Source: an uncultured delta proteobacterium
GTDB lineage: Bacteria > Desulfobacterota > Binatia > UBA9968
Length of the DNA stretch: 64,000 nucleotides
Direction: 5' to 3'
Assembly (NCBI GenBank): GCA_963767275.1
Contig: CAVYDL010000001.1
Location: 257,393-321,392, forward strand
Part shown: positions 2,358 through 41,620 of the stretch, in pieces
Layout: the number at the start of each line of letters is the position of its first letter
Numbering within the stretch: position 1 is the first letter of the stretch
Program-made: the position numbers and the translations under genes
The notes under the pieces: generated by a model
Told to the model about the DNA's origin: nothing
Databases searched by the model: none
The model's input: only the letters and a program-made list of their open reading frames with translations

Positions 2358-3897
2358 CTACTTCGCCGGCGTCTTTTCCGTCGGGGCCTTTTCTGGCGGT
2401 GTCTTTGCCGCCGGTGCTTTTTCTGCGGGTGCTTTTTCCGGCGGTGGTTTTTTCGCCTCCGCCGGATCTTTGCCGATCGCTTTCATCAACTCGACGTACT
2501 GAACTACCGAACCATGGAGCGGTAAAATGCGCTCGACTTCGATGTTCAAGCGGCGCACGTTGGCTTCCAAGTTAACGGAGAACGGATCGGGTGTTTTGGG
2601 CACACTGCCGGGAGTGAAAGCGTCCGCTTCGATCAGCAGTTTCTCTTTGCGGAGGTACGCCATGACGATGCCATCATGGTGGGCGTTACCGACCATTTGA
2701 TAAAGCTCGACGGAACGCGTTCCATCGGTCAGCACCATATTGTCGCCCATGGCCTGGAAAACCGGCTTCTTTTTCGACTTCGCCAAACGATCGGGATTCA
2801 AGCTCCAGCTATTATTGGCAGCCCGTTCAAAAAGTGGCCGGTTAGCTTCGTGGGTCACGATGGTCACTCCGTCCGCAGCGTAGGCACGCACGCCGCCGGA
2901 GTGGTCGAAGTGATGATGGGAGTTGACCAAATACTTGATCGGCTTATTGGGCACCAGCTTCTTCACCTCGTCGATCACCGCCATCGAGCGGACATCACTG
3001 GACGGTGCTTCCACGACGATCAAATAGTCTTTCATCTCGATCAACACGGAATTATGCGAGTCGCCGCCGATAAACCAAACGCCGTCAGCGGTTTTTTCGG
3101 ACTTGACCGCCGTCGGCGTGCTGCGCACATTGGCCGGCACTTCGACATTGAAAGTCGGATTGGCGCGCACCGCCGTGACGACAACGTCCAAAGCCGGCAA
3201 GCCGTCCTGGTATTGCACGATTCGGGTGGGAAATTTGACTCCGGCAAAGTCGCGGTACGGGCCGTAGTTGGTCACGACTTTCATGTCGCCCACCACCGGA
3301 TGGCCGTAGCTCGACTCGATGCGCTCGATGGCATTCTGATCGTTGGCATAGGCGACGATCTTGCGCTTGCCCTGATCGGTAAACGAGACCACCGTCATCT
3401 CCCGCCCGTCGATCTTTTTCTTGGTTACGGCAGCATTGCTGGCAAACGCAGCCCGGACCACTCCGTGCGGCGAAGTCGCCAGGTCATGCGCCCGGGCGCT
3501 GGCCTCGTGGGGCCGGGCCGGCGTGTTTTTGCCGGCCTCATTCCAGGCGAGATCGCCGGCCGACCAAAGTTATGCTTTGCTGATCGCCCTCGAGCGGCTG
3601 ACCGCCGCCTCCGCTCGGAGGGTTCTCCCCCTGCGTGCGGACCATTTGTTGGCGCATGGCTCCAGCGGTGAAGTCGTACATGCGCGTCAAACTTTTTACG
3701 TAATATCTCGGATATGCCGCCATCGGGCTGGTCGATTGCCCGACCTGCCACATCTTGCCGTTAGCGGTGAACTGAAACGTTTTCGTCGTCGATACGTCTA
3801 ACGCGTCGGCGATCTGCTGGAGCGCCGTGTCCGCCGCCTCGGCTCTAAAACCACAAAGAAGCACCAACGCGAGCGCAGTAACAAACCTGTTTAACAT
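2358..3897 (-). CDS. Secreted MBL-fold metallo-hydrolase, paralog 2 (signal peptide, N-domain and HxHxDH domain), with one apparent -1/+1 shift near 3545-3555 and a C-terminal PEKAP-repeat tail.
   Basis: ORF 3538-3897 gives the signal peptide and N-domain. The frame of 2358-3461 stays open upstream as far as 3580 and carries the SHHHFDHSGG motif. Deleting one base in ggccggcg rejoins the two frames (LVGGDLAWNE). The C-terminus is KKPPPEKAPAEKAPAAKTPPEKAPTEKTPAK. Confidence 0.65.
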
Positions 3898-6043: not shown

Positions 6044-7321
6044 TCAAAACTTGAGCACACCCACTTGGTGCTTTTCTTGGTTCCAGGCGGCGAGCAAATA
6101 CCAGACAATCATCAGCAGCACAACTGCACCGACGGCCCAGGGCCAGCTAAAAAGTTGCGGCAAAAACACCGGCGTGCCCAGCTGACCAATCCACTCCATG
6201 CGTGTGAGCAACAAACGCATCGCCGATGCAGTAAGGGCAAAAAAAACCACGGCAATCCAAAGCTTCACATGCCCCTCGCCGGCGCGCCAGATCGATCCCG
6301 CGCCGCAGCCGCCGGCAAGCACCATGCCGATGCCGAAGATGACACCGCCGGTCAGAGCGCCGAACCAAAATGACGGGAACACCCACTCTGACGCGTCTTT
6401 TAAATCCGTGACTTTTAAAATCGCGAAGCCGATCACACCCATGACCAGCGCCAATGCCGCGCCGCGCGCATGCTCGCTTGCGCCGCTCATGAACGGCTCG
6501 CGAAAGGCGTTCACCAGACAAAAGCGCGAGCGCTGCAAGACGATGCCGAAAGCGCTGCCGAAGAATAAGAAAACTGCTAACCGGCCATGACCCATGAACT
6601 GATACGAATACCCCGCTACGAGCACGAGCATGAGCACCAATCCGCCAATCCCCGGTTGAAGCTTAAACGCCGTCGAGGTAACCGCCGGCCGCGGCGGCGC
6701 CTCGCAAGTTGCCATAAATGGCAATCTGCCGGACTCGATGACCTTGCCGTTCTCGCGGATCAGATAGCGCGTACCGATAAAGGCGCCGACAACTAGCCCC
6801 ATCATCATCGCCAATCCGCTCGCCGACAGCGCCGCTAGCGCGCTGAAAAACCCGCCGATGTTGCAGCCAAACGACAACACCGCACCCGCGCCCATGAGCA
6901 GACCGCCGAGCGCGCCTTTGATTAATTCCCTGCCAGGCGCCGGGCGCATGGCGAACTCACGGCTGAGCAACGCCGCTGCTAGCGCGCCGAGCAGCAAACC
7001 GATGTTCAACACCGAGCCGGAGTACAGTAGCGGCGGCAGCAAGTCCGGCTGATCGATGACGCCAAGCCAGTGGAACATGGAGTCGCCCCAGCTGCGCAAA
7101 CCATCCGACGCGGTCCATGGCTTGTCATAGGCGAAGAGAAAAACATTGAGGGCGGCAATTACCAGCGCCGAGGGCATCACCGGCCAGGGGCGGCCGAAGA
7201 TTTGATTATATTGATCGCGCAATACCGCGGCGAGGCTGCCAGGTTTGCCCGTCATAATGGCGGCAGGGCGCGCGATTCGCCCACAATAACCGGGGATTGA
7301 ATTCTCGACGCCGACAACCAT
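6044..7321 (-). CDS. YeeE/YedE-family sulfur-compound (thiosulfate-type) transporter with duplicated domains; likely start at M23 (7255).
   Basis: Two copies of the YeeE/YedE signature (GCNIGGFFSALAA ... AGGCGAGSIWRAG), highly hydrophobic, about 400 aa. Confidence 0.75.
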   Translation of the reverse strand: MVVGVENSIPGYCGRIARPAAIMTGKPGSLAAVLRDQYNQIFGRPWPVMPSALVIAALNVFLFAYDKPWTASDGLRSWGDSMFHWLGVIDQPDLLPPLLYSGSVLNIGLLLGALAAALLSREFAMRPAPGRELIKGALGGLLMGAGAVLSFGCNIGGFFSALAALSASGLAMMMGLVVGAFIGTRYLIRENGKVIESGRLPFMATCEAPPRPAVTSTAFKLQPGIGGLVLMLVLVAGYSYQFMGHGRLAVFLFFGSAFGIVLQRSRFCLVNAFREPFMSGASEHARGAALALVMGVIGFAILKVTDLKDASEWVFPSFWFGALTGGVIFGIGMVLAGGCGAGSIWRAGEGHVKLWIAVVFFALTASAMRLLLTRMEWIGQLGTPVFLPQLFSWPWAVGAVVLLMIVWYLLAAWNQEKHQVGVLKF

Positions 7322-7324
7322 GAA

Positions 7325-7669
7325 CTAGGAAAAATGCACATCGCTCTGGCCCTGATAAACTTTACCCTCGGTATCCGAAAAACTCACCGTCAGCTTGCCC
7401 GGCTTGTCGACTTTCAACGGAAAGGTAAAACTCGGATTCTGACTGACAGCCTGGGTCAGCTCCGTGCGCATCACTTCCTTGCCGTTGTACGCCACGGTCA
7501 TGGTATGAATAAATAGATAGTTCTTGGGAATAATCTTGTTCGCCTTATCGCGCTGGACGATCTCCATCGGATGGATCACCAGAGTGCGCACGCGAATCAC
7601 GTCGCCCTGCTTGATCGACGACGGCAAGCGAATACTGACTCTGCCTACCTCAGCCATAACTTTTCTCAA
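7325..7669 (-). CDS. soxZ: SoxZ thiosulfate-oxidation carrier subunit.
   Basis: VIRVRTLVIHPMEIVQRD...KIIPKNYLFIHTMTVAYNGKEVMRTELTQAVSQNPSFTFPLKV matches the SoxZ pattern (xHPMExG...IP...NGK.V...AVS.NP.F.F). Confidence 0.75.
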   Translation of the reverse strand: MRKVMAEVGRVSIRLPSSIKQGDVIRVRTLVIHPMEIVQRDKANKIIPKNYLFIHTMTVAYNGKEVMRTELTQAVSQNPSFTFPLKVDKPGKLTVSFSDTEGKVYQGQSDVHFS

Positions 7670-7733: not shown

Positions 7734-8273
7734 TCAGCCCTGCGGCGGCAGATCACAGCCGCTGATGGTTACCCGCACATGCTTGCTCACCGCATAAAGC
7801 GTATCATCGCTCATCTCCGCGACCACGCGCACATCGGTGGAGGTCGCCAAACGCACGCTGGTGGCGACCGACGCCCGCCCCGACTCCGGCGTAAATGAGA
7901 ACTTCGCCAACATCGGCCGGCGGTTCTTGTCGGAAATAATATAAATACGCTTCACCTGCACCGCGCCGCTTACCGGCAAACTCGAGTCGATGGCGATCGC
8001 CACGCTACTGCCATCCTCGGCGATCTGCGGTAGTTCGACCTTAAGCTTGTCGTCACCGCTTTGGAATACGCGATTACCGAATAGCCGCTTCAAAGTCGCA
8101 TCGACCAGCTCGTCCGGCTGCGGCATGCCCAACGCGGCAACCTGAGCCTTTATCGTGCTTGGGATCAAAAGTTCTTTGAGCAAACCAGCGCCGCCAAGCA
8201 CGGTGACCAACACCCGTAGAAACCTTCTGCGACTCAGCACCGAAGAGTAAGCTACTGACTCGAATCGGCTCAT
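7734..8273 (-). CDS. soxY: SoxY-like sulfur-carrier protein with a Tat signal; the C-terminus is ...VTISGCDLPPQG, not the canonical GGCGG.
   Basis: MSRFESV...SRRRFLRVL twin-arginine motif. The body aligns to SoxY (VKRIYIISDKNRRPMLAKFSF...VRVTISGC). RBS-spaced ATG at 8271-8273. Confidence 0.7.
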   Translation of the reverse strand: MSRFESVAYSSVLSRRRFLRVLVTVLGGAGLLKELLIPSTIKAQVAALGMPQPDELVDATLKRLFGNRVFQSGDDKLKVELPQIAEDGSSVAIAIDSSLPVSGAVQVKRIYIISDKNRRPMLAKFSFTPESGRASVATSVRLATSTDVRVVAEMSDDTLYAVSKHVRVTISGCDLPPQG

Positions 8274-8414
8274 TATTGATCCGCGCATCGACTGTAATTT
8301 AGTAAATATGACTAAACCAATCAACTAGGTTTGATTTTACTTGACTTAGCCTGGGCGTTTGGTTATTCACGAAAACGACTCAACCAAACCGATCAAACTT
8401 TTGTGGAGATATCC

Positions 8415-9659
8415 ATGTCTAGATTCACGCGTAGAAGATTTCTCCAGGTTAGCGGCATGGGCGTCGCCGCGCTCAGCGCGGCGCGAGTGCCGGTGTTCGG
8501 CCAGGCGCGGCGCCGTGTCCTGGTCATCGGCGGCGGCTGGGGCGGCGCCACTGCGGCGAAGTATGTTCGTCTCACTGACCCGTCGATCGAAGTCACTGTG
8601 CTTGAACCTAACAAGGAATTCATTTCCTGTCCCTTCAGCAACCTCGTCGTGGCCGGCGTCGAATCGCTGAAGAGCCTGACCCTGAACTATAACGGCCTGA
8701 GAAAACATGGCGTGAAAATTCGCCATGAGGCTGCCGCCGCCATCGAGCCGGACAAGAAGCGCGTGCGCGTCGGCAGGGATTCACTCGAATACGACCGATT
8801 GATAGTTTCGCCGGGCGTCGATTTTCAGTGGGAACTGATCGACGGCTTGGCGCAGGCCAAAGACAAAGTACTCCACGCCTGGAAAGCCGGACCGCAGACC
8901 GTGCAGTTGGCCCAGCAGCTACAGTCCATGGCCGATGGCGGCGTTGTCGTCATGACCGTGCCGCCGGTCGCCTATCGATGCCCGCCCGGCCCCTACGAAC
9001 GGGCATCGATGATCGCTTGGTTGCTGAAAACCAAGAAACCCAAATCGAAATTGATCGTCCTCGACGCCAACAAAGACATCGTCTCAAAGACCGGGCTGTT
9101 CAAAGCGATATTCAAGGAATATGACGCCAACATCGAATACCGCCCAGCGCAAAAGGCCGAGAAGATCGATGTCGGCGCCAGAGAGATCACCACGGATACG
9201 GGCGACAAAGTGAAGTACGACGTGGTCAATGTCATTCCGCCGCAGCGCGCCGGCGCCATCGCCGTCGACGCCGATCTGGTCAGCGGCGACAAGCGCTGGT
9301 GCGAAGTCGATCATGTGAGTTATGAATCGCTGAAGCAGAAAAACATTCATGTCGTCGGCGACGCGACGATCGGCTTGCCCGTGCCCAAATCGGGCAACGT
9401 CGCCAACGCCATGGGAAAAATTTGCGCCGTCGCCGTTGCCAATTTGTTAAACGGCAAAGAGGCGCCGCAGATCGCTCCGGGCAACACCTGCTACAGTTGG
9501 GTCAGCGACAAGGAAGCGATCGCGGTGGTCAACGCGTATAAGATCGAAAACGGCAAGGTCGTTCAGATCGAGCAAAAACTCACACCGGGCAAGAGCGTCG
9601 GCACGGCGCAAAACTCGCTTTCCTGGCGCGCCAGCATCTGGAACGACATGTTAGGATGA
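8415..9659 (+). CDS. fccB: Flavocytochrome c sulfide dehydrogenase flavoprotein subunit (FccB/SoxF-like FAD oxidoreductase) with a Tat signal.
   Basis: MSRFTRRRFLQVSGMGVAALSAA, then VLVIGGGWGGATAAKY (FAD Rossmann) ...EPNKEFISCPFSN...CPPGPYER. RBS ggagat 7 nt upstream of the ATG at 8415. Confidence 0.8.
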   Translation: MSRFTRRRFLQVSGMGVAALSAARVPVFGQARRRVLVIGGGWGGATAAKYVRLTDPSIEVTVLEPNKEFISCPFSNLVVAGVESLKSLTLNYNGLRKHGVKIRHEAAAAIEPDKKRVRVGRDSLEYDRLIVSPGVDFQWELIDGLAQAKDKVLHAWKAGPQTVQLAQQLQSMADGGVVVMTVPPVAYRCPPGPYERASMIAWLLKTKKPKSKLIVLDANKDIVSKTGLFKAIFKEYDANIEYRPAQKAEKIDVGAREITTDTGDKVKYDVVNVIPPQRAGAIAVDADLVSGDKRWCEVDHVSYESLKQKNIHVVGDATIGLPVPKSGNVANAMGKICAVAVANLLNGKEAPQIAPGNTCYSWVSDKEAIAVVNAYKIENGKVVQIEQKLTPGKSVGTAQNSLSWRASIWNDMLG

Positions 9660-10276
9660 TCGAGGACACTTTCATGCGTAGATTACGATTCATGGCAGCG
9701 AGCTTATTAGGTTTATTGATGCTCACGGCGGCGGCGAGCGCCGGCCCCCTCGATTCTCCCGGCGCGCAGAAATCCCTCGTGTGCAGCGCCTGTCACGGCT
9801 TTGCCGGCAATACGCCAGGACAATACATGCCCGTGCTCGCCGGCATGAACGCCAATTATTTCAAGAAAGCCATCAAGGATTACGCCGAGGGCAAACGCCC
9901 GTCGCCGGAGATGGAACCTTACGCGAAGTATATTTTACAGTTCGGTTTGGATGAGATCGCAGATTATTTCGCCAGCCAAAAAAAGCCGGCGCCGGCCAAC
10001 CTAAAGGTCGCGGCCAAGGCACCCAGCCGTGGCTCCACCCTCGCCGCCCAGTGCATCGCCTGCCACGGTGCCAAAGGCGACGGTGACAACGAACGCGTCG
10101 TCCCGGCCCTGCGCGGACAACCCAGGGGTTTTCTGCAGACTCAGATGGCGCTGTTCGCCGGCGATAAGCGCAAATTGGAAATCGCTGAAATGGAAGAAGC
10201 GAAAAAGCGCAGCTTCAACGGACTCACCGAAGCCGACCTCACCGACCTGGCGACGTATTACGCGACGCTAAGATAA
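9656..10276 (+). CDS. fccA: Diheme cytochrome c (FccA-like cytochrome subunit); its start overlaps the fccB stop (ATGA).
   Basis: Signal peptide plus two CxxCH motifs (CSACH, CIACH), about 200 aa; ATGA overlap with the upstream stop at 9656-9659. Confidence 0.75.
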   Translation: MIEDTFMRRLRFMAASLLGLLMLTAAASAGPLDSPGAQKSLVCSACHGFAGNTPGQYMPVLAGMNANYFKKAIKDYAEGKRPSPEMEPYAKYILQFGLDEIADYFASQKKPAPANLKVAAKAPSRGSTLAAQCIACHGAKGDGDNERVVPALRGQPRGFLQTQMALFAGDKRKLEIAEMEEAKKRSFNGLTEADLTDLATYYATLR

Positions 10277-10580
10277 TCCCGAACACAGGGAGAACCCACC
10301 GGCCTGTGCGACGATGAGACCCCGTCGCAACGGTCCTTGCCCAGTAAAGGTGGAAAATTATTTCGCCGCAAGCGGATTTCGCCAGTGGCGACACCGGCTC
10401 CAAGCGGATCAGCTGATTTTTTTCGTTCGCTGAGCACCTTCGTCGATTTCTATATTGCTACACCCGGCAGCCTCGATCATCCGACCTCCATCGGGGCCTT
10501 TGAATGCAAAATATCGCCGGCTGCGGCTGGCAGCATCACGGCGAAGTTTGTATAAGAAACGTCGGAACTCGTTCAGCTTC

Positions 10581-24630: not shown

Positions 24631-25410
24631 TTAGATTTTCTCGCTCGATTCGGGCGGCGCTTGCCGCTCAGCACGAACGATTTCAATCACCGCGAGCAGC
24701 GCCTGCCGCGGCGATACTTGCGGCTCATCTGAGAACTGCCCATCGGCGCCACAGCTCACGGTGAATTCAACATGGGAGTCGTCGTCGACCGCCACATGCC
24801 AGCGCAGCGAGTTTTCTCTGCCGGAGGCAATGGCGTGAGCGGTCAGCATATTGGGCATGATGAACTTGGCACCGCCGGCGGGTGGTTGTTCACCGTCGGC
24901 AATCCCTCGCAGGTAATTTTCCGCGCGCAACACTTTCGTCGGCGGACGCCCCGCCGGTTGCTCGGCGAGACATTTATAGGGCGGCAGCGCCGGCGGCTCG
25001 CCCGGCCCCATGTAAACAAAAATTATTCCGCCCGCTTCGACACAAGGATAAGACGGCTGGCCGACATCCCAGCGCCGTTCTTTCTCCGGCAGCCAGTCGC
25101 CGCGCAGCAGCACCTTGCCGCAGGTGTCGAATAGCCAGCCGTGATACATGCAGCGCAAACCGTCCGGCTCGACCCGGCCGTATATCATATCGACGCCCTG
25201 ATGCGCGCAGTAGCGCCCGATCAAAGCCGGCTTGCCCGTGCCGTCGCGAAAGAGAATCAACTCCTCGCCGAACAGTTGCACCGGGAACGGCTTGTCCGCC
25301 GGCACATCCTCCGACAACGCCGCCGGCTGCCAATAACGCCGCATCAGCGCGCCGCAAGGCGTGCCCTTGCCGGTCTGTGTCAGTAAATTATTTTCTTCTT
25401 CAGTCATCAT
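24631..25410 (-). CDS. Rieske [2Fe-2S] domain protein (ring-hydroxylating oxygenase alpha-subunit N-terminal type); short, and the catalytic domain is not evident.
   Basis: CAHQGVDM...CMYHGWLF Rieske CxH...CxxH pair; only 259 aa. Confidence 0.55.
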   Translation of the reverse strand: MMTEEENNLLTQTGKGTPCGALMRRYWQPAALSEDVPADKPFPVQLFGEELILFRDGTGKPALIGRYCAHQGVDMIYGRVEPDGLRCMYHGWLFDTCGKVLLRGDWLPEKERRWDVGQPSYPCVEAGGIIFVYMGPGEPPALPPYKCLAEQPAGRPPTKVLRAENYLRGIADGEQPPAGGAKFIMPNMLTAHAIASGRENSLRWHVAVDDDSHVEFTVSCGADGQFSDEPQVSPRQALLAVIEIVRAERQAPPESSEKI

Positions 25411-25608
25411 GAACCAAAAATCGATTCACCGCGGATTATCCAGCGCCGATGATAATCGATCGCATGGCGTAGTTCTTACCTTGGGCATCTGTCCGCCATC
25501 ATAAACACGATCGCGCCGGGATGCCAATTGTCCACGCACGCACCGTGATTGACAGCAAAAACAGCCAGACCTATAGTCCGCGGCATCTTTAGGTGTCAGG
25601 AGTACCTC

Positions 25609-26595
25609 ATGGATCGAATCGTTCCCATGATCCTATCTCTAATTATCTGCGCAACGCTGACAAGCGTCGCCACCGCTCAAGAGCGCATGCGCATCGCCTG
25701 GGCCGGCAGCACGCCGTCGAACACGCCGATCTGGGTCGCCGACCAGAAAGGGTTTTTCAAACGAAACGGCCTCAACGCCGAGGTCATCAGCATCAGCGCC
25801 AGCACGATCGTCATCCAAGCGCTGCTCACCGGCGAAGTCGATTTCATCGTCGCTCCGTCGGCGACGTTGGTTACTTCTAAACTCGCCGGCGCCGATACCG
25901 TGATGGTATCGACTAATCTGCCGCTGTTCATCGACCACATCGTTTCTCTGGGCAGCATTACGACCATCGAGCAGCTCAAGGGTAAATTCGGCGGGGTCAA
26001 CCGCTTAGGCACGACCTCCGACATGACGCTCCGGCTCGCCCTGCGCCGCTTGGGAGTGGACCCGGAGAAGGAAACCAAAATCATCGCCACGGGAGAAAAT
26101 CCCCAACGGCTCGCCGCCCTGGCCAACAACATCACCCAGTTCACGCTCTTGGGCGAACCGCTGGTGCGCGAAGCCGAAAGGCTCGGCTTTCGCGATCTAT
26201 TCGACATCGGCACGTTGAAGATTCCCTACCACGTCAACGCCATCGTCACCCGGGAAAAGACCGTCAAAGAGCGCCGGCCGCTGGTGCAAAAAGTCGTGCG
26301 CGCCTTCACCGAAGCGCTGCACTACATTAAGACCAACAAAGAGGACACCAAAGCGCTGATCGGCAAAAATCTCAAAACCAAAGACCCCGAAGGACTCGAG
26401 CGCGCCTACAAAGCCTACAACGGCGCCTTTCCCGAAGTTCCTTATCCCCACGCCGAAGGGGTCAAAACCCTGCTCGACGATATCGCCCCGCGCGACAAAA
26501 AAGCCGCTGCCGCCGATCCGAAGAGTTTTGTCGATATGAGCTTGGTGCAGGAATTGGAAGCGTCGGGATTTATCAAGCAGCTGTATAAAAGATGA
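25609..26595 (+). CDS. NMT1/THI5-like (NitT/TauT-family) ABC substrate-binding protein, orphan.
   Basis: Signal peptide, then RIAWAGSTPSNTPIWVADQKGFFKRNGLNAEVISISA... is the typical NMT1-like SBP pattern; about 330 aa. Confidence 0.7.
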   Translation: MDRIVPMILSLIICATLTSVATAQERMRIAWAGSTPSNTPIWVADQKGFFKRNGLNAEVISISASTIVIQALLTGEVDFIVAPSATLVTSKLAGADTVMVSTNLPLFIDHIVSLGSITTIEQLKGKFGGVNRLGTTSDMTLRLALRRLGVDPEKETKIIATGENPQRLAALANNITQFTLLGEPLVREAERLGFRDLFDIGTLKIPYHVNAIVTREKTVKERRPLVQKVVRAFTEALHYIKTNKEDTKALIGKNLKTKDPEGLERAYKAYNGAFPEVPYPHAEGVKTLLDDIAPRDKKAAAADPKSFVDMSLVQELEASGFIKQLYKR

Positions 26596-26637
26596 CCAAG
26601 AAATTTTGCTCAATGCACCAACGTCAATCGAAAAACC

Positions 26638-26907
26638 ATGCCTGAGATTTCTCGATTCTTTGGGATTGTCATCCGCATGTTCGTCGAGGCAGGCGGGCCG
26701 CATCACACGCCGCACTTTCACGCGTATTATCAGGACCTTGTTGCGATTTACGATATCACAAAGATCGAGCTATTGGCGGGCGCAATGCCGAGGCGGCAAG
26801 AACGGCTCGTTTTGGCTTGGGCCGAGCTTCACCAAGAGGAGTTACGGGCGAATTGGCAGACATTGCAACAGGGCCAAGCTGCGATTAAGATTGAGCCATT
26901 AAAGTAG
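26638..26907 (+). CDS. DUF4160 domain protein.
   Basis: MPEISRFFGIVIRMFVEAGGPHHTPHFHAYYQ...AWAELHQEEL matches DUF4160 along its length. Confidence 0.8.
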   Translation: MPEISRFFGIVIRMFVEAGGPHHTPHFHAYYQDLVAIYDITKIELLAGAMPRRQERLVLAWAELHQEELRANWQTLQQGQAAIKIEPLK

Positions 26908-26917
26908 AATATCATCC

Positions 26918-27235
26918 ATGACCCACCAAATTCATCGCGTTGTATCGTTTCAGAAAATCCCGCCATTCACTTTACGCGTCCAATTCGATGACGGCACATC
27001 CCAAATCGTAGATTTTCAACCCGTTCTGAAGGGGGAAGTTTACGGACCATTGCGAGATACCGCGGTTTTCGACCAAGTCAGCATCGATCCCGAAGCGCAC
27101 ACGCTCGTCTGGCCCAACGGCGCGGATTTCGATCCGGCGATTTTGCACAACTGGCCCGAATCCGGCCCGGAGCTCGAAGCCTTAGCCAACACCTGGAAGC
27201 CTCAGAACCATCGCGCAGCCGGAATTCCGACGTAA
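26918..27235 (+). CDS. DUF2442 domain protein (the usual partner of DUF4160).
   Basis: FTLRVQFDDGTSQIVDF...VWPNGADFDP; adjacent, 10-bp gap after the DUF4160 gene. Confidence 0.75.
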   Translation: MTHQIHRVVSFQKIPPFTLRVQFDDGTSQIVDFQPVLKGEVYGPLRDTAVFDQVSIDPEAHTLVWPNGADFDPAILHNWPESGPELEALANTWKPQNHRAAGIPT

Positions 27236-27254
27236 GTTACGAAGAAGCAGTTCT

Positions 27255-27360
27255 GTGCGCCAATAAAGCCGGCGCCGCTAACCAGACGATGTTCGTCGAC
27301 TTGAGCGAGGTGCAAGAACTGGCAGCATCGGGGTTTATCAAGCAGCTTTATAAAAGATGA
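27255..27360 (+). repeat. Roughly 105-bp imperfect direct repeat of the 3' end of the SBP gene at 26490-26595 (a gene-end remnant).
   Basis: gtcgacttgagcgaggtgcaagaactggcagcatcggggtttatcaagcagctttataaaagatga versus gtcgatatgagcttggtgcaggaattggaagcgtcgggatttatcaagcagctgtataaaagatga, with upstream aaagccg..gccg similarity. Confidence 0.75.
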
Positions 27361-27427
27361 CTCGTTCGAGACTTATGCAGGTATATGGTGAAATACAGGT
27401 TAATATTATCGATGGTGAAGTGGCTGA

Positions 27428-27836
27428 ATGGACATCACACTGGCAACAAATACCGACAATCCGATTCTCCAGTTTCGGAACGTGAGTCGTTCCTCGGGTG
27501 GTTCCGGATACGGAGCAGAGCTGCTTGTTCGATCTAGAGACTTCAGCGTGGAGTTCCCGTTTTACTTTGAGGTCGAACCTATGCGGGAGTTTATTGCTAA
27601 CCTGGACGAAATGGACAAGAACCTTGAAGGGGAAGGCTGTACTAAACCCAATGTATGAAGATGATTTTATCGAATTTGAGATAGACGAAAGTACCGGGCA
27701 TGTCGAAGTCCGCGGCGAAATATTCGAGCATTCTGAAATGCCACAGAGTTTGACGTTTGCGTTCCAAACAGATCAAACCTGTTTGGCTCCCCTGGTCCAA
27801 GAGCTAAAGAAATGGCAACAAATGGCCGCCAGTTAA
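27428..27836 (+). CDS. Hypothetical protein in an AT-richer islet (about 48% GC); apparent frameshift near 27630-27650.
   Basis: Two overlapping frames (27428-27658, 27498-27836) that join into one protein of about 135 aa; no recognisable domain. Confidence 0.4.
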
Positions 27837-27978
27837 CTATGCCTTTCAGCGGGCGACCAGCCGGTCGCCCTCTACAAATCCGAATTTTATCTTTGCGCCC
27901 TTTGCGTTCTTTGCGGCTAAGTCTTCCGGGTCCGAATTTTGTGACTTTTGTGCTCTTTGTGGTTAAATCATCCGACTC

Positions 27979-29079
27979 TTAATTCAGCCCGTAAAACACC
28001 CGCGGATTATCTTCGACGATTTTCTTGTGCATGCCCGCGCTGATGCCGCCGTCGTCTTTCAGCGTCGTCAAAGCATCTAATTCGGTTGACGAATCGGCAT
28101 GGCCGTAGTCGGTGCCGATCATCAAAGTATTCTCACCCATGCAGCTCTTGATCAGATACGGCACGTCGTCGCCGATCTGGCAGGTGACGAAGATGCCGGA
28201 CTGCTCCAACAGATCGTTGGGCAGTTTTTTATTCACCGTGTCCAAGCGCCGGCGCAGCTCGTAGATCACCCAGGGCACCCAGGAGGCCGCGGTTTCGATA
28301 AAGCCGAAGCGCAGCTTGGGGAACTTCTGCGGAATGCCGCAATTGAGGATGCGGAACATCGCCCCGACATTGAAAATCCGATACTGGTTGAAAAAATCGC
28401 GGCTGCCATCCGGGTTGACCATCATGTCGACCGCCGCGGCGCTGCCGTTGGCCTGATGCAGGCCGATGCAGAAATTCAGTTTCTCGGCTAATTCGTACAT
28501 CGGAAAGAAGTAAGGATCGCTGATCTGCCGCGCGCCTTCGAGGGGGCGCATGAACACGCCGCAGCCGCCGTTTTCCTTGGCGAATTTTAATTGATCCAGC
28601 GCATCCGGCATGCTCAAGAGCGGCAAGGTCGCCATCCAGCGCAGCCGCCCATTGCTCTGCTTCCAAACATCCGCCATCCAGCGGTTGTAGGCGCCGCACA
28701 ACGCCACTTCGGTATCGGCGCGCTCGGTGACCTGATCGAGAAAGATACTGGTGTAGAGCACCTGGAGATCGATTCCCAGCTCGTCCATATGCCGGATCCG
28801 TCCCGACACGTCGGCGAGATCGCGGGTCGCCATGGTCGTCGACACGTCGCGGCCGAGTTCGGCGGACTTCTTGTCGAGATCGTCTTTGCTGAAGGTAAAG
28901 CGAAACAGACCGCGAATCTTGCCGTCGATCACCCAATGGGCTTTCTGATTGTCGTCTTCCGGCTTGAATAGCTGGGGGCGAAACTTTTTTTCCGATGGCG
29001 TCAAATAATCCCAAGTCAGCGGACTTTCGACGACATGCGCGTCAGCGTCTACCCATCCCATAACGATTTCCTCCGTCAA
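27979..29079 (-). CDS. Amidohydrolase-2 family (TIM-barrel metal-dependent hydrolase, ACMSD-like).
   Basis: WVDADAHVVES ... FMRP ... IGTDYGHAD conserved His/Asp ligand positions typical of PF04909. Confidence 0.7.
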   Translation of the reverse strand: MTEEIVMGWVDADAHVVESPLTWDYLTPSEKKFRPQLFKPEDDNQKAHWVIDGKIRGLFRFTFSKDDLDKKSAELGRDVSTTMATRDLADVSGRIRHMDELGIDLQVLYTSIFLDQVTERADTEVALCGAYNRWMADVWKQSNGRLRWMATLPLLSMPDALDQLKFAKENGGCGVFMRPLEGARQISDPYFFPMYELAEKLNFCIGLHQANGSAAAVDMMVNPDGSRDFFNQYRIFNVGAMFRILNCGIPQKFPKLRFGFIETAASWVPWVIYELRRRLDTVNKKLPNDLLEQSGIFVTCQIGDDVPYLIKSCMGENTLMIGTDYGHADSSTELDALTTLKDDGGISAGMHKKIVEDNPRVFYGLN

Positions 29080-29168
29080 TCCATTTTGGATTTTTGATTT
29101 TCAATTTCCGGACGGGCGAAACATGTTTCGCCCCTACTAATATCTGTTGCCTAATGCCTATTGCCTGC

Positions 29169-29933
29169 TTAATGCAGCACGGCGCCGCCGTTGACGAGAA
29201 TCGTCTGGCCGGTGACGAAAGTGCTCAAATCGGACAGTAAGTAGAGCGCCGTCCCGACCAGATCTTCCGGCTGCTCGATGCGCTTGAGAATGCGCGTGGT
29301 CGCCGTCCGTTCATAATTCTTCAACGCTTCGTCAGTCGCTTTATCTTCGCTCATGGTCGCGCCGGGCGCCAGCGTGTTGACACGAATATTATCCCCGCCC
29401 AACTCGCGCGCGAGCACGCGGCTGAACCCCACCACCGCCGCCTTCGAAGTCACATAGTGCATCATCGTCAAGCCGCCGTTGAATGCCATGTTGGACGAGA
29501 TATTGACGACGCTTCCTTGTTTACGTTTCTGCATGGCGGGAACCACAGCCCGGCTGGATAGCCACAGCCCTTTGACGTTTACCGCCATGATGCGGTCCCA
29601 GGCTTCTTCGGTGATATCCTGCCAGCTGCCCTTTTCCGCCGGCACGCTCATAAAGATCGCCGCGTTGTTGATCAAGCCGTCGATCTGGCCATAGGCGCCG
29701 AGAGCTTTTGCCGCCATCTCCTGGCAGCTGGGAAAATTCGCCACGTCGACTCTGGTCGCCAGCGCTTTGCCGCCCTTGTCGGCGATCGCTTTGGCAACGC
29801 CGTCGGCGGCCTTATCATCGATATCGGCGACCACTGCCGTGCCGCCTTCGCGGGCGATCCCCATGCAATAGGCACGGCCAATGCCATGTCCGCCGCCGGT
29901 CACCACCACTACTTTGCCGTCCAATAAACCCAT
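29169..29933 (-). CDS. SDR-family short-chain dehydrogenase/reductase.
   Basis: GKVVVVTGGGHGIGRA (TGxxxGxG) ... NNAA ... S...YVTSKAAV (YxxxK). Confidence 0.85.
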   Translation of the reverse strand: MGLLDGKVVVVTGGGHGIGRAYCMGIAREGGTAVVADIDDKAADGVAKAIADKGGKALATRVDVANFPSCQEMAAKALGAYGQIDGLINNAAIFMSVPAEKGSWQDITEEAWDRIMAVNVKGLWLSSRAVVPAMQKRKQGSVVNISSNMAFNGGLTMMHYVTSKAAVVGFSRVLARELGGDNIRVNTLAPGATMSEDKATDEALKNYERTATTRILKRIEQPEDLVGTALYLLSDLSTFVTGQTILVNGGAVLH

Positions 29934-34548: not shown

Positions 34549-35526
34549 TTACTTGGCAGCACCGCTCTTGTAAAACCCTTCCTTCTCCAACTGCGCGACA
34601 AAGCGCGTGTCGAGAAAATCTTCCGGCTTAGCGGTCTTGGCCTTGGGCTCGGTGGGCAGCAACTCGCCGATGATCGTTTCCATGCCTTTGCGCGTCACGT
34701 ACGGAATCGTCTCGATGTAAGCACGCGCTTCGCCGTAAGTCGCTTCGAGAATCTCCGGATCTTTGATGCGCGCGTATTTCTGAATCGCGCGGATGCCGGC
34801 GGCTTTGTTCGCCTTCAACAGCTGCACGCCTTCGCTATAGCCGCGCATAAAACGGCGCGTCATCTCTTCGTTGGCCTTGACGAACGACCGGGTCGAACCG
34901 ATGGCGACGGAGACATACTCCGGGCCGTCCTTGGTCACGTCCATCAATTCGCTCAAGCCGGCTTTACGGGCGCGAAAGTTGGTCGGCGGCGAGAGCGCAC
35001 CGGCGTCGACTTGGCCGGCCGCGATGGCGGTAAAAATATTCGGCACGTCGACCAATTGCAGCATCTGATAGTCATCGGGTTTGAAGCCCGCTTTGTTCAT
35101 CACCCAAAGCGTCACGCTGTGAGTTGACGATCCCAGCCTGGTAATGCCGATTTTCTTGGCGCGCATTTCAGTTAAACTCTTGATCTCCGGCCGTGCCATG
35201 AACGAGAACACCAAGCGGTTGGCCACGCCGGCGATAATCGCTACGTCGGCGCCCTTGAGCGCCGCCGTCACCGAATTGCGCCCGTCCATGTAAGTATAGT
35301 GAAGTTCGCCGGCGAGCATCACTTGAATCGCCCGCGAAGTCGAAGGAATATGCACGAGTTCGACTTCAAGGCCGTTCTTCCGGAACAGCCCTTCCTCTTG
35401 CGCCACCCAAGTGCCGCTCATGTTGCTGGCGAACGAAGTCCACGCCACCCGCGCCTTCATCTGCGTCGAGCCGGCGCTCGGCAAGAGCAGCAAAGCCAGC
35501 GCAGGAATTAACGACCGGAGCAACAT
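34549..35526 (-). CDS. NMT1-like (NitT/TauT-family) ABC substrate-binding protein, orphan.
   Basis: Signal peptide, then KARVAWTSFASNMSGTWVAQEEGLFRKNGLEVELVHIPS... Confidence 0.7.
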   Translation of the reverse strand: MLLRSLIPALALLLLPSAGSTQMKARVAWTSFASNMSGTWVAQEEGLFRKNGLEVELVHIPSTSRAIQVMLAGELHYTYMDGRNSVTAALKGADVAIIAGVANRLVFSFMARPEIKSLTEMRAKKIGITRLGSSTHSVTLWVMNKAGFKPDDYQMLQLVDVPNIFTAIAAGQVDAGALSPPTNFRARKAGLSELMDVTKDGPEYVSVAIGSTRSFVKANEEMTRRFMRGYSEGVQLLKANKAAGIRAIQKYARIKDPEILEATYGEARAYIETIPYVTRKGMETIIGELLPTEPKAKTAKPEDFLDTRFVAQLEKEGFYKSGAAK

Positions 35527-35679
35527 TTTAAGACAAGCTTTATCGGCATTCCCGGACTTTTCATAAATAAAGATTTGGCCGCAAAGAACGCAAAAGCCAC
35601 AGACCCCTCATCGAATTATCCGCAGCGAAGGGCTGGCAACCTTCCCACGCCCTCCGACGGAAGCTAAGATGTAAATCCG

Positions 35680-39060: not shown

Positions 39061-39141
39061 CGGTAATGCGACATTGACAGCAGCGCGCGTTCTCATCTAA
39101 AAGGAATCCCAACAACCGGCGGACAATTGAAGGAGAACCAT

Positions 39142-40159
39142 ATGCGCAATCGTTTGTTAGTCTCGTTTTTCGGACTCGCTCTCGCGCTATCCGTGCCGCT
39201 GCGCGCCCAATCGCTGGCTGCTGCCGAGAAACTCGATAAGGTTCGCTTCACCTACGCCCCGCTGTCCGCCAGTGGATTTCTCTGGTTCATCGCCAAAGAC
39301 GCCGGCTATTTCGAGAAAAACCGCCTCGACGTCGACATGTATTTCGAAGGCGCATCGCCGATCATGGTGCAGTCGATTCTCGCGGGCGAGAATCAGCTCG
39401 CCGGCGGCTTGGGGCCCACCGTAGTCACCAACGTCTTACAGGGAGGAGATGTCATTCCCGTCGCCTGTATCACGCACACGTTTACCACCCCCATGTATGT
39501 CCAACCGTCGATCACCAGCTTGCAGCAACTCCGCGGCAAAAAAGTCGGGGTAAGCCGTATCGGTGCCGTATCGCACCTGACCGCCGATTCGATTCTGCGC
39601 CGTGCCCGAGTCGGCGATGTAACGATCATCCAAACCGGTGGCATTCCTGAATCCATGGCGGCGATCATGACCGGCAACCTCGATGGCGCCATGGTCAACC
39701 CGCCGAACAACATAATTCTTAGAGAAAAAGGCTTCCGCGAGATCGTCGGCGCGAAACAACTCAAAGAATTGAACCTGCGTTTTCCCGAGAACGGCGTCAT
39801 GGCCAAGCGCACCTGGGCCGAGAAAAATTCCGACGTCGTCAAAAGATTTATCAAATCCATCGCTGAAGGCTTGAAGCGCATGCATGACGATAAAGACTTT
39901 GCGATCAAGACTCTCGGTAAATACACCAAGGTCACCGACGCGAAATCGCTCGAAGAAAGCTATCGCTGGGGCATCGATAGCTTTTTCAAGGATTTCAAAA
40001 CCTCACCCGACGGCGATGCGGCTCATGGTCGACCAGCTGGCCTCCTCGCGCATGATTGATCCGAACCTCGCGCAAAAAACCCCGCTCACGGCCTACTATG
40101 AAAATCGCTACGTCGAGGAGCTGGAGCGGGAGGGATTCTTCAAGAAGCTGTGGCAGTAA
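39142..40159 (+). CDS. NMT1-like ABC substrate-binding protein; apparent frameshift near 40000-40030.
   Basis: RBS aaggagaacc 5 nt before the ATG at 39142. Signal peptide, then KVRFTYAPLSASGFLWFIAKDAGYFEKNRLDV..., and the C-terminus resumes in a second frame ...NLAQKTPLTAYYENRYVEELEREGFFKKLWQ. Confidence 0.7.
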
Positions 40160-40501: not shown

Positions 40502-40565
40502 ACAGAAAGAGATCGAATGCAAATCTTTTTCCGTTCGTCCTGAGCCCGTCGAAGGCCTCTGAGAT
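40500..40565. repeat. MITE/REP-like element fragment.
   Basis: ttccgttcgtcctgagcccgtcgaaggcctctgagattgtgttcagcg, compare 24555-24600. Confidence 0.55.
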
Positions 40566-40633
40566 TGTGTTCAGCGATTTGCGTAACTTTCCAGGAAAAT
40601 GAAAGTCACGCTCCAGCGCGTTTGGAGATCAGT

Positions 40634-41620
40634 ATGAAAGCTCGTGTCTTTGCCGCAATCCTGACAACGCTATCGGTGTTCCTCACACCACCCGCGCCCG
40701 CCCAGGACAAACCGAAGATCTATGTCGGCCCTTCAAGCAAGACTCTAGGCTACAGTCCGCTGTGGGTCGGCGCGAAGAAAGGGTTTTTCGAACAACAAGG
40801 ATTGGACGTGCAAGTGGTGGTGCTGCGCGGCATGCCTATGGTCGTCCAAGCCCTCGCGGCGGGATCGATCCACTTCGGTTCCGGCGGGCCCGAGCCGTTC
40901 ATGGAGTCGAGCGACCGCGGCCTCGATTTCATCATCACCGGCGGGGTCATTAACGGCATGACAGCGGCCATCGTCGCCGGCAAGAAATATAAAAGCTTCG
41001 AAGATTTGCGCGGCACGACGGTGGGCTCGTCTTCATTGACCGGCGGCACCGTCACCGCCTTTCGCGAGGCAATGAAACAGAAAGGACTCGAATATCCCCG
41101 CGACTACAAGATTCTAGTGGTCGCCGGCGGTTCATCCGGCAATCTCGCCGCGCTCCAATCCGGCCAGATCTCCGCCACGACGGTCGCCGTGCCGCTCAAC
41201 TACGCCGCCGAGGAATTGGGATTTCATAGCATCGGCCGTCTGCTCGACGCCGTGCCGCAGTTTCAATCGGCGGCGTTGGCCACGCGCCGTTCCTGGGCCG
41301 AGAAAAATCGCCCGCTCATGGTGCGCTTCATGAAAGGCATGGTGCAGTCGCTGCGCTGGATGCACAACAACAAAGACGCCACGGTGGAGTTCTTGACCAA
41401 GGAGATCCAGCTAAAACCAGTCCACGCCCTGAAAGGCTGGGAGTACTATACGCAGAACCGCATCTGGCCCTACGACGGCGAACCCAACATGGAAGGCATG
41501 AAACACAACATTCGCGTCTACTACGACCAGACCGGCGCCAAAGCCCCGGTGCCGGATGTGTCTAAATTTGTCGAGATGAGTTATCTCAACGACGCGTTGA
41601 AGGAGTTTGGCAAAAAATAG
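40634..41620 (+). CDS. NMT1-like ABC substrate-binding protein, orphan.
   Basis: MKARVFAAILTTLSVFLTPPAPAQ signal peptide, then KIYVGPSSKTLGYSPLWVGAKKGFFEQQGLDVQVV... Confidence 0.7.
   Translation: MKARVFAAILTTLSVFLTPPAPAQDKPKIYVGPSSKTLGYSPLWVGAKKGFFEQQGLDVQVVVLRGMPMVVQALAAGSIHFGSGGPEPFMESSDRGLDFIITGGVINGMTAAIVAGKKYKSFEDLRGTTVGSSSLTGGTVTAFREAMKQKGLEYPRDYKILVVAGGSSGNLAALQSGQISATTVAVPLNYAAEELGFHSIGRLLDAVPQFQSAALATRRSWAEKNRPLMVRFMKGMVQSLRWMHNNKDATVEFLTKEIQLKPVHALKGWEYYTQNRIWPYDGEPNMEGMKHNIRVYYDQTGAKAPVPDVSKFVEMSYLNDALKEFGKK

Follow-up and report, generated by a model that had tools for sequence, protein, structure and literature searches.

An accessory islet lies at positions 26596–27836 of the 64,000-nucleotide (nt) stretch of DNA analysed here (contig CAVYDL010000001.1; hereafter the window), in the gap between a gene for a periplasmic substrate-binding protein (SBP) and a convergent amidohydrolase gene of a Candidatus Binatia-type genome. 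The islet contains an intact DhiT/DhiA toxin–antitoxin (TA) operon and a frameshifted WapI-like gene, and between the two is a decaying relic, 105–125 nt in length, of the 3′ end of the SBP gene. Relative to the SBP–WapI gene order seen in the related locus L052, the window has gained a working SBP end together with dhiT and dhiA (jointly DhiTA), and the old end is stranded behind dhiA. The best explanation, which we hold with a probability of roughly 0.6, is that DhiTA and an SBP end were added as a unit at the homologous gene end, that the pair originated in an integron, and that the unit came in as a single molecule.

The 3′ end of the SBP gene is present twice

The SBP gene (25609–26595, + strand; NMT1/SsuA-like, 328 amino acids (aa) from its ATG) is the host of the duplicated end. 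Copy A (26491–26595, + strand) comprises the functional last 35 SBP codons with the TGA stop, and copy B (27236–27360, + strand) is the decaying 3′-end relic, in which homology is clear over 27257–27360 and probable from about 27240. Aligned with each other, 26492–26596 and 27257–27361 match over 105 nt, ungapped, at 79% identity (blastn E ~5e-22). The initial annotation of the window had reported this repeat at about 85% identity; the repeat is real, and the higher value holds only across the last 20 codons. The second in-frame ending reported with it is present, copy B reading ...SGFIKQLYKR* (...NQTMFVDLSEVQELAASGFIKQLYKR*).

The two copies differ in their distance from a functional end. Against the SBP end of L052, the relative with the empty site described below, copy A (94–96% identity) carries 4 changes and copy B carries 18, distributed 5/5/8 over the three codon positions, which argues that copy B is a displaced, neutrally decaying end. 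An orthologous relic that shares changes with copy B is found in L054, and the relic is 79–83% identical to orthologous SBP ends. The differences between copies A and B of the window fall 4/6/10 by codon position; the share at third positions (10/20 in the window, 7/14 in L027) is uninformative. In the window, L054 and L039, the relic opens with GTTA immediately after ..CATAA, and the L054 SBP allele reads CTGTTAGAC at the corresponding position, which fits the integron core-site consensus GTTRRRY.

Relatives supply an exact empty site

Relatives were taken from a scan of one genome per species, which gave 51 related loci onto which the window proteins were mapped. Nearly all are metagenome-assembled genomes (MAGs) labelled Candidatus Binatia or, in older entries, 'delta proteobacterium', with SBP identity up to 96%, and 40+ Binatia MAG loci contain an SBP orthologue of 80–96% aa identity. 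At nine of the loci (L007, L010, L014, L019, L021, L023, L024, L025 and L026) the SBP gene is followed by the convergent amidohydrolase gene within 20–130 bp, and DhiTA is carried by four of the 51 (L027, L039, L043 and L051). Two additional loci, L052 and L054, were reached through homologues of the repaired WapI-like protein. L054 shares the full order of the window, i.e., SBP end, DUF4160, DUF2442, relic and WapI-like gene (91.7% identity over 1630 nt), and L052 runs from SBP through the WapI-like gene, hairpin and amidohydrolase to a short-chain dehydrogenase/reductase (SDR) gene without DhiTA.

Window positions 25400–26595 correspond to L052 179–1374 (95.7% identity), and window positions 27262–29200 correspond to L052 1276–3195 (90.5%). 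The single SBP end of L052 therefore aligns to both window copies, and the sequence after its stop is the window sequence after copy B, which supports insertion and rejects the loss of a paralogous gene. The spacer 5′ of the WapI-like gene (27361–27427, + strand; 98.5% identical to L054 and 89.7% to L052) has an equivalent that directly adjoins the SBP stop in this empty-site relative. An insertion by recombination that duplicated the gene end had been proposed from the outset, with an empty site in related genomes as the thing to look for; such a site is found, exact in L052, and together with the nine cargo-free relatives it supports the proposal.

The cassette and its flank have, by synonymous divergence, discordant histories. 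Between the window and L054, the number of synonymous substitutions per synonymous site (dS) is 0.09 for dhiT and 0.42 for the SBP gene; between the window and L027, dhiT is saturated and the SBP gene has a dS of 0.68. In addition, the GC content is 46–52% over 26350–28000 and 57–62% outside. Both the discordant divergence and the low GC content support the earlier suggestion of horizontal acquisition.

The architecture of the window recurs in L054, L039, L027 and L043, and in truncated form in L051. The cassettes at the SBP site form two deep lineages, type 1 (window, L054 and L039) and type 2 (L027, L043 and L051), which are saturated at synonymous sites relative to each other and differ in their junction details. 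The view that the four dhiA–relic junctions go back to one ancestral event is weakened by this saturation and by the differing junctions; two insertions at the SBP site, or a later allele replacement, are equally possible. We considered L051 as a pristine, relic-free donor cassette and dropped the idea, as L051 appears to keep approximately the first 20–30 nt of the relic in a stretch too degenerate for exact measurement. The leader between the SBP stop and dhiT (26596–26637, + strand; 42 nt) is 88% identical to that of L054, is unlike the leaders of L027, L051 and L043, and contains no convincing sigma-70 match.

An intact DhiT/DhiA operon between the copies

The dhiT gene (26638–26907, + strand) is intact and encodes a DUF4160 protein of 89 aa, which matches PF13711 over the full profile (1–65/65) with 76.5 bits (cut-off 23). 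Against the NCBIfam model toxin_DhiT (NF048015) it scores 71.5 bits (E 6.8e-20), under the equivalog cut-off of 100, and by these scores the product would be classed as a DhiT homologue and not as an equivalog at the NCBI threshold. The dhiA gene (26918–27235, + strand), also intact, begins 10 nt after dhiT on the same strand and encodes a DUF2442 protein of 105 aa (PF10387, 44.7 bits; cut-off 23.9). Pfam thus agrees with the DUF4160, DUF2442 and NMT1-like calls of the initial annotation. Its description of a TA-like pair of unknown function is right as to the TA pair and understates the case otherwise, as the family is a validated one, DhiTA (PMC8198452, PMC12724237).

In Dickeya dadantii 3937, dhiT and dhiA are co-transcribed, both Dickeya and E. 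coli are inhibited in growth by DhiT, an effect that DhiA abolishes when co-expressed, and the promoter is repressed by the antitoxin alone and more strongly by the complex (PMC8198452). On a Thermus plasmid, a pair that shares these domains increases plasmid persistence, and its second gene, the antitoxin, cannot be deleted alone (PMC12724237). DUF4160 is also found as an effector domain of Menshen NsnC proteins, and a published analysis identified no confident structural homologue of it (PMC12065111). Like the Dickeya pair and the 'persistence-enhancing module' of Thermus thermophilus, the window pair combines the two Pfam domains in a toxin-first bicistronic order, and it is of similar size (89 and 105 aa in the window, 87 and 92 aa in Thermus). 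It differs in that its genes are 10 nt apart, not overlapping as in the known pair, and in its host, an uncultured Binatia bacterium.

Compared with distant homologues, dhiT and dhiA have nonsynonymous divergence (dN) of approximately 0.10–0.20 with dS of 1.5–2.6 or saturated; for dhiT, dN is approximately 0.10 with dS of 1.5–2.5 or saturated, and the dN/dS of dhiA is approximately 0.07–0.09 where dS is measurable. Ratios below 0.1 over such long distances show that both genes of the intact pair are kept by purifying selection. By analogy with the characterized pairs, DhiT would inhibit growth, DhiA would bind and neutralise it, and the complex would repress the operon; loss of the operon would then be penalised, which would stabilise the islet. 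The purifying selection on the window pair supports such a role indirectly. The window contains no other DhiTA pair. Sequence searches of the PDB gave no useful match for either TA protein, PADLOC gave no match for DhiT, DhiA or the WapI-like protein, and exact-sequence database look-ups for the window DhiT and SBP returned no record.

A frameshifted WapI-like gene behind the relic

The second gene of the islet, the WapI-like immunity gene (27428–27836, + strand; 409 nt), has its reading frame broken by an extra A at 27620/27621. It had been described as an orphan of about 135 aa; the interval in fact falls into two frames (27428–27658 and 27498–27836), and removal of one base restores a 135-aa protein that matches the WapI-like family PF24716 with 46 bits (cut-off 27; profile positions 32–132 of 138), compared with 27.3 bits for the unrepaired C-terminal frame. 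Intact homologues of 134–135 aa exist (P0001–P0006), so that the protein is no orphan. Nor does it belong to the inserted cassette as had been supposed, as the gene is found in place in L052, the relative with the empty site.

L052, L054 and L053 all lack the extra A, and the L052 copy has a different 1-nt deletion. Several related MAG contigs are rich in frameshifts, including three MFD-labelled ones (L039 6001–7735, L029 6001–6923 and L001 7028–7412), and the window gene may for this reason be either a pseudogene or the product of an assembly error. The repaired protein fits the same Pfam family as WapI, the immunity protein to the WapA polymorphic toxin of Bacillus subtilis. Compared with B. 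subtilis WapI, the window gene is frameshifted and lacks an adjacent WapA-like toxin gene, and its immunity role is putative. No cognate polymorphic toxin precedes it, the upstream genes being dhiA and the SBP gene; toxin domains elsewhere in the window were not searched exhaustively.

Relatives of both islet genes are integron cassettes

A metagenome scan with DhiT gave 80 loci (54–83% identity), in none of which an SBP gene is the neighbour. Evidence for attC is restricted here to manually verified sites, as two home-made scanners were too unspecific in GC-rich DNA, with many matches in coding sequence where checked. In at least 11 homologues (L059, L065, L057, L061, L064, L076, L092, L112, L118, L103 and L129) a canonical attC directly follows dhiA: the dhiA stop lies inside ..CACATAAC or ..GGGCTAAC, an imperfect palindrome comes next, and GTTAGRM closes the site. 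Among these, L059, L057, L061 and L065 are 79–82% identical in aa sequence to the window DhiT, and L059 has at least four further attC sites. Another four homologues lie in arrays of attC or attC-like sites, with attC of ~130 nt (GCCCAAC...GTTGGGC) in L119 and L122 and ~83-nt attC-like repeats in L128 and L117. The attC type that we tie to the proposed integron origin is CCGCCGCTT...AGCGGCATGGCGTTAG, and the exact 16-mer AGCGGCATGGCGTTAG is common to the DhiTA attC of L059 and to one attC in the SBP/amidohydrolase gap of L002.

In the tail alignment, the dhiA stop of the window lies within ..GACGTAAG, the counterpart of the ..CACATAAC box that opens attC in the related cassettes. The WapI-like family is found in the same setting. 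In L057 (292–1385), a WapI-like gene (71 bits) and then DhiTA are adjacent cassettes of an attC-type array, separated by an attC 3′ end (..AGAGC G|TTATGTGG); the order is opposite to that in the window, and the locus is a second context in which the two families stand side by side. Since the DhiTA and WapI-like relatives are bounded by attC, both islet genes come from families that travel as integron cassettes, and we infer that both descend from cassettes that lost their attC, i.e., that became 'domesticated' in the genome.

This course has precedent: the integrase IntI uses genomic GWT sites ('attG') as targets for cassette insertion, excision can take place imprecisely at nearby genomic sites, and attC is readily lost by slippage, 'domesticating' the cassette (Loot et al., 10.1101/2022.09.11.507474). 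A crude attC scan of the window itself found matches only outside the islet, in coding sequence as far as checked. We also note short tyrosine-recombinase-like fragments near DhiTA in L056 (92–250), L088 (1004–1168) and L089 (1009–1173), which are 45% identical to the C-terminal part of an IntI1 sequence.

The same scar at unrelated genes

Direct repeats within 300 nt of DhiTA occur at 10 of 47 testable metagenome loci, compared with 9 of 383 size-matched control intervals (Fisher p = 4e-6; p = 9e-5 without the array loci). The flanking repeats are partly attC sites or, in L110, a repeated intergenic element, and partly gene ends.

The most complete parallel is a glutathione S-transferase (GST) gene in Binatia, convergent with an Fpg glycosylase gene (L060 2863–3740, L055, L058 and L136). 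Here the GST gene is followed after 6 nt by DhiTA, then by a truncated attC (..CACATAAC GGGTCGGCCC) and a relic of the last ~123–130 nt of GST, of which L136 retains only the first 32 nt. L135 (3464–3700) is an exact empty site, in which 3464–3586 aligns to both copies of L060. As a side observation, the 198-aa GST alleles (tail ..TGT/TGI) look cassette-linked, in that P0036 of L136 carries DhiTA and its tail reaches the cassette leader; the single 196-aa allele checked (P0049 of L135) is the empty site.

Two other genes bear similar marks. In L109, 81 nt of the 3′ end of an unrelated gene are repeated (101–181 and 806–886), and in L075, the repeated 74 nt (2880–2952 and 3612–3684) come from the 5′ end of an lpxC-like gene. 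Differences between copies fall at third codon positions in 16 of 19 cases in L109 (p=0.002) and in 8 of 8 in L006 (p=0.004), against an expectation of 1/2, a bias which argues that the copies are two functional alleles and not an in-place duplication. Across four different genes, the borders of the unit lie 6–42 nt before dhiT and 0–30 nt after dhiA.

Other cargo in the SBP/amidohydrolase gap

In Candidatus Binatia, the space that separates the SBP and amidohydrolase genes is a hotspot for cargo. Unrelated insertions occupy it in L001 (0.8 kb), L002 (1.6 kb), L038 (4.6 kb) and L005 (5.6 kb), as well as in L043. Behind a damaged SBP gene, L043 (6530–9450) carries in order DhiTA, an SBP relic, Gp49/HTH_37, a 36-nt SBP relic, BrnT/BrnA and a HigA-like gene, and the borders of these modules are three copies of the SBP 3′ end (6408–6526, 7189–7258 and 8267–8302). 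In L005, a nucleotidyltransferase/HepT (MNT/HEPN) pair (9468–10125) lies between ~100-nt relics of the amidohydrolase 3′ end (9336–9437 and 10183–10281), which mirrors the window architecture on the other flank gene. The gap of L002 (6967–8540) contains two canonical attC sites, at 7443–7521 (R'' GGTTAAC to R' GTTAGGC) and 7923–8000 (GCCTAAC to GTTAAGC), and at least two canonical cassettes, one a cupin gene between the attC sites and the other a 90-aa open reading frame (ORF) without a Pfam match. No integrase is present in the 13-kb locus of L002, which resembles a CALIN (cluster of attC sites lacking an integron integrase).

Two features of the gap are native. A GC hairpin (27851–27870, no strand assigned) with an 8-bp stem and a 4-nt loop, GGGCGACC-AGCC-GGTCGCCC, folds as the initial annotation described; it does not close the islet, being native to the SBP/amidohydrolase gap, and is found directly 3′ of the SBP stop in the cargo-free L004, L008 and L009. 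As it has no T tract, it is not a canonical intrinsic terminator. Next to it, a repeated intergenic element built of CTTTGCG/CTTTGTG repeats (27885–27969, + strand) ends in GTGGTTAAATC, within which GTTAAAT at 27962–27968 fits GTTRRRY. In L005, the native GTTAAAT of the element is the exact point at which an attC 3′ end has been joined (..GCATAGC G|TTAAAC..), and the element could be a preferred landing site for cassettes or an attI-like site. Further copies are found in the window (35570–35600, − strand), L001 (7590–7740), L005 (2340–2460 and 12440–12615) and L110 (34–128 and 899–993), the last two flanking a DhiTA pair; the element ends in GG(T/C)(T/C)AAAT(C), a motif present 4 times in the window against 0.46 expected.

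The surroundings of the islet

The SBP product has a Pfam NMT1 match of 70 bits, and its match to the NCBIfam SsuA_fam model is under the family cut-off. According to Pfam, a Rieske gene lies on one side of the islet, and on the other lie the convergent Amidohydro_2 gene (27979–29079, − strand; assigned from Pfam and synteny), which is the conserved right flank of the hotspot, and then an SDR gene. All genes within ~8 kb of the islet are metabolic. Rfam and transfer RNA (tRNA) scans of the window were empty, so that it has no tRNA-type att site, and a promoter/terminator scan found nothing beyond shuffle expectation. Three more NMT1-like SBP paralogues (34549–35526, − strand; 39127–40059, + strand; 40565–41620, + strand) are 25–26% identical to the SBP considered here and are surrounded by amidohydrolase, hydrolase, SDR and TctC-type genes, in what looks like a region rich in catabolic and transport genes.

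Discussion

How the added unit may have arrived

In the explanation that we favour, the added unit would be one molecule carrying both the cassette and a gene end. Its likely form would be a circle, produced by imprecise excision between the attC of the cassette and a site inside the upstream gene. The circle would integrate at a homologous gene end, either through a single RecA crossover or through IntI at a GTT site, and either route would duplicate the gene end and leave the order gene–D–cassette–D′–downstream. The GTTA start of the relic and the CTGTTAGAC allele of L054 can be cited in support of such a circle.

A number of observations weigh against this account. GWT sites are very frequent, so that a GWT at a junction is weak evidence, and at the left border of the repeat most SBP alleles have CTGCTCGAC instead of GTT. 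The relic junction at the GST gene is likewise not GTT, and looks like a microhomology of 5–6 nt (GCCGAC) in the truncated attC. No attC follows dhiA in the window, where the stop ..GACGTAAG runs directly into the relic and leaves no room for one, and no tyrosine-recombinase match was found in the 64-kb window by tblastn with an IntI1 query. The 4/6/10 differences between the window copies are equally in keeping with an imported copy and with a duplication made in place long ago, and, as to the identity of the cassette, the predicted DhiT falls short of the NCBIfam equivalog score.

Homology-facilitated illegitimate recombination (HFIR), or abortive allelic replacement, accounts for part of this list, and we regard it as possible although on balance unlikely. 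The incoming DNA, from a relative with different cargo, would be joined by homology on one side, within a conserved flanking gene, and by microhomology on the other, with no integrase; recombinants that lose the TA pair would die, and only additive products would survive, leaving a stranded gene-end relic. Such a course suits the GST junction, with its short microhomology in a truncated attC and no G|TT joint, and the third-position-dominated differences in L109 and L006. It also suits the SBP site, at which the relics of L027 and L043 resemble different functional SBP alleles and the cargo after the relic differs in every genome, and the stepwise accretion of TA pairs in L043 and L005, each bounded by an SBP-end or amidohydrolase-end relic. 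Classical HFIR, however, usually deletes recipient DNA beside the anchor and does not make a duplication of ~100 nt inside it, and why the joint repeatedly falls 70–130 nt inside a gene end is left unexplained. The present data are compatible with circle integration and with HFIR.

The remaining explanations are all much less probable. Direct repeats that consist of a gene 3′ end, and of which one copy restores the gene, are a typical feature of integrative elements. In the window, as in elements that target 3′ ends, the gene remains whole through the upstream copy, and the downstream copy is left as a displaced fragment. The islet might on that basis be what is left of a larger element aimed at the SBP 3′ end, with the repeats as attL and attR and the addictive TA pair as the sole remainder; TA pairs resist deletion, and tyrosine-recombinase fragments adjoin DhiTA in L056, L088 and L089. 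We consider this improbable. Unlike such elements, the window unit is ~660 nt long and has no integrase or element genes, and these are likewise absent from the six SBP-site and four GST-site loci; between the repeats there is nothing but dhiT and dhiA in every carrying locus, and with borders this tight at four genes, decay to one and the same minimal unit is unlikely to have happened independently. Still harder to credit is an in-place target-site duplication, in which a transposition-like staggered cut ~100 nt wide would be followed by decay of the non-functional copy. Repeat lengths are similar at several genes (74–130 nt), and the 10/20 third positions of the window fit a functional copy paired with a neutrally decaying one, but there is no transposase gene, the unit is not bounded by terminal inverted repeats, the repeat measures 105 nt, and the copies in L109 and L006 differ almost only synonymously. 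No bacterial transposition system is known to make duplications of ~100 nt.

The alternative that the initial annotation had kept in reserve, the leftover end of a deleted tandem SBP paralogue, has the least in its favour and is very improbable. Tandem SBP genes do occur (L005, L032 and L046), and L006 has an SBP fragment 3 kb downstream. Against this, no second SBP gene follows DhiTA in any of 54 loci, so that an SBP–DhiTA–SBP arrangement is not seen, and the relic belongs with the orthologous SBP ends; the end of the tandem paralogue in L005 matches copy A at 71% identity and has no match of its own to copy B. Moreover, the sequence that follows the single SBP stop in L052 is the one that follows the relic in the window, and the same architecture exists at the GST gene with its own exact empty site.

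Relation to known systems

The islet joins two known kinds of element, i.e., a DhiTA toxin–antitoxin pair and a former integron cassette outside an integron. Genome-inserted cassettes (attG insertions; single or clustered attC sites lacking an integron integrase, SALIN and CALIN; 10.1101/2022.09.11.507474; for CALIN, Cury et al. 2016, PMC4889954) resemble the window in having no integrase nearby. The comparison extends to attC itself, which, the SBP and GST sites left aside, bounds the nearest DhiTA relatives as well as a WapI-like gene, and which is present in canonical form in the L002 gap. It fails for the window pair, which has no attC and is flanked by a 105–125 nt duplication of a host gene end. 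The word 'duplication' is not mentioned in the text of Loot et al. (10.1101/2022.09.11.507474), and we did not find the feature described elsewhere.

TA pairs are also known as cassettes that stabilise the arrays of sedentary chromosomal integrons, e.g., in Vibrio (Richard et al. 2024, PMC13108822). Like these, DhiTA homologues occur in arrays with attC of 83–130 nt (L119, L122 and L128); unlike these, the window pair stands alone in a metabolic neighbourhood, with no array and integrase. We have not found a description of recurrent gene-end duplication with accretion of TA pairs bounded by gene-end relics.

Significance

Taken alone, the locus adds one more member, from an uncultured lineage of soil bacteria, to a recently validated TA family. 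In addition, the exact empty sites at two genes make it a clean natural case of integron-type cassettes persisting outside integrons after loss of attC, a phase of cassette life for which documentation has until now come mainly from the laboratory. Within Binatia, one gap between convergent genes gathers TA pairs, immunity genes and other cassettes, and duplicated gene ends are met again at unrelated genes and alongside other TA families.

We tentatively raise a wider possibility, doubtful as it may be, that gene-end duplications of ~75–130 nt are a recurrent signature of small cassettes, especially TA pairs escaped from integrons, settling in chromosomes. An imprecisely excised circle would bear the end of a neighbouring gene and would re-integrate, through RecA or IntI, at the homologous gene in another genome; TA addiction would make the gain hard to reverse, and TA islets would grow with gene-end relics as their scars. 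If true, this would amount to a homology-guided spread of cassettes between related genomes, of which we have found no description. If the duplications do reflect a defined mechanism, they would provide a sequence signature with which the gain of cassettes can be dated and traced, and a link, open to testing, between TA addiction and islet growth.

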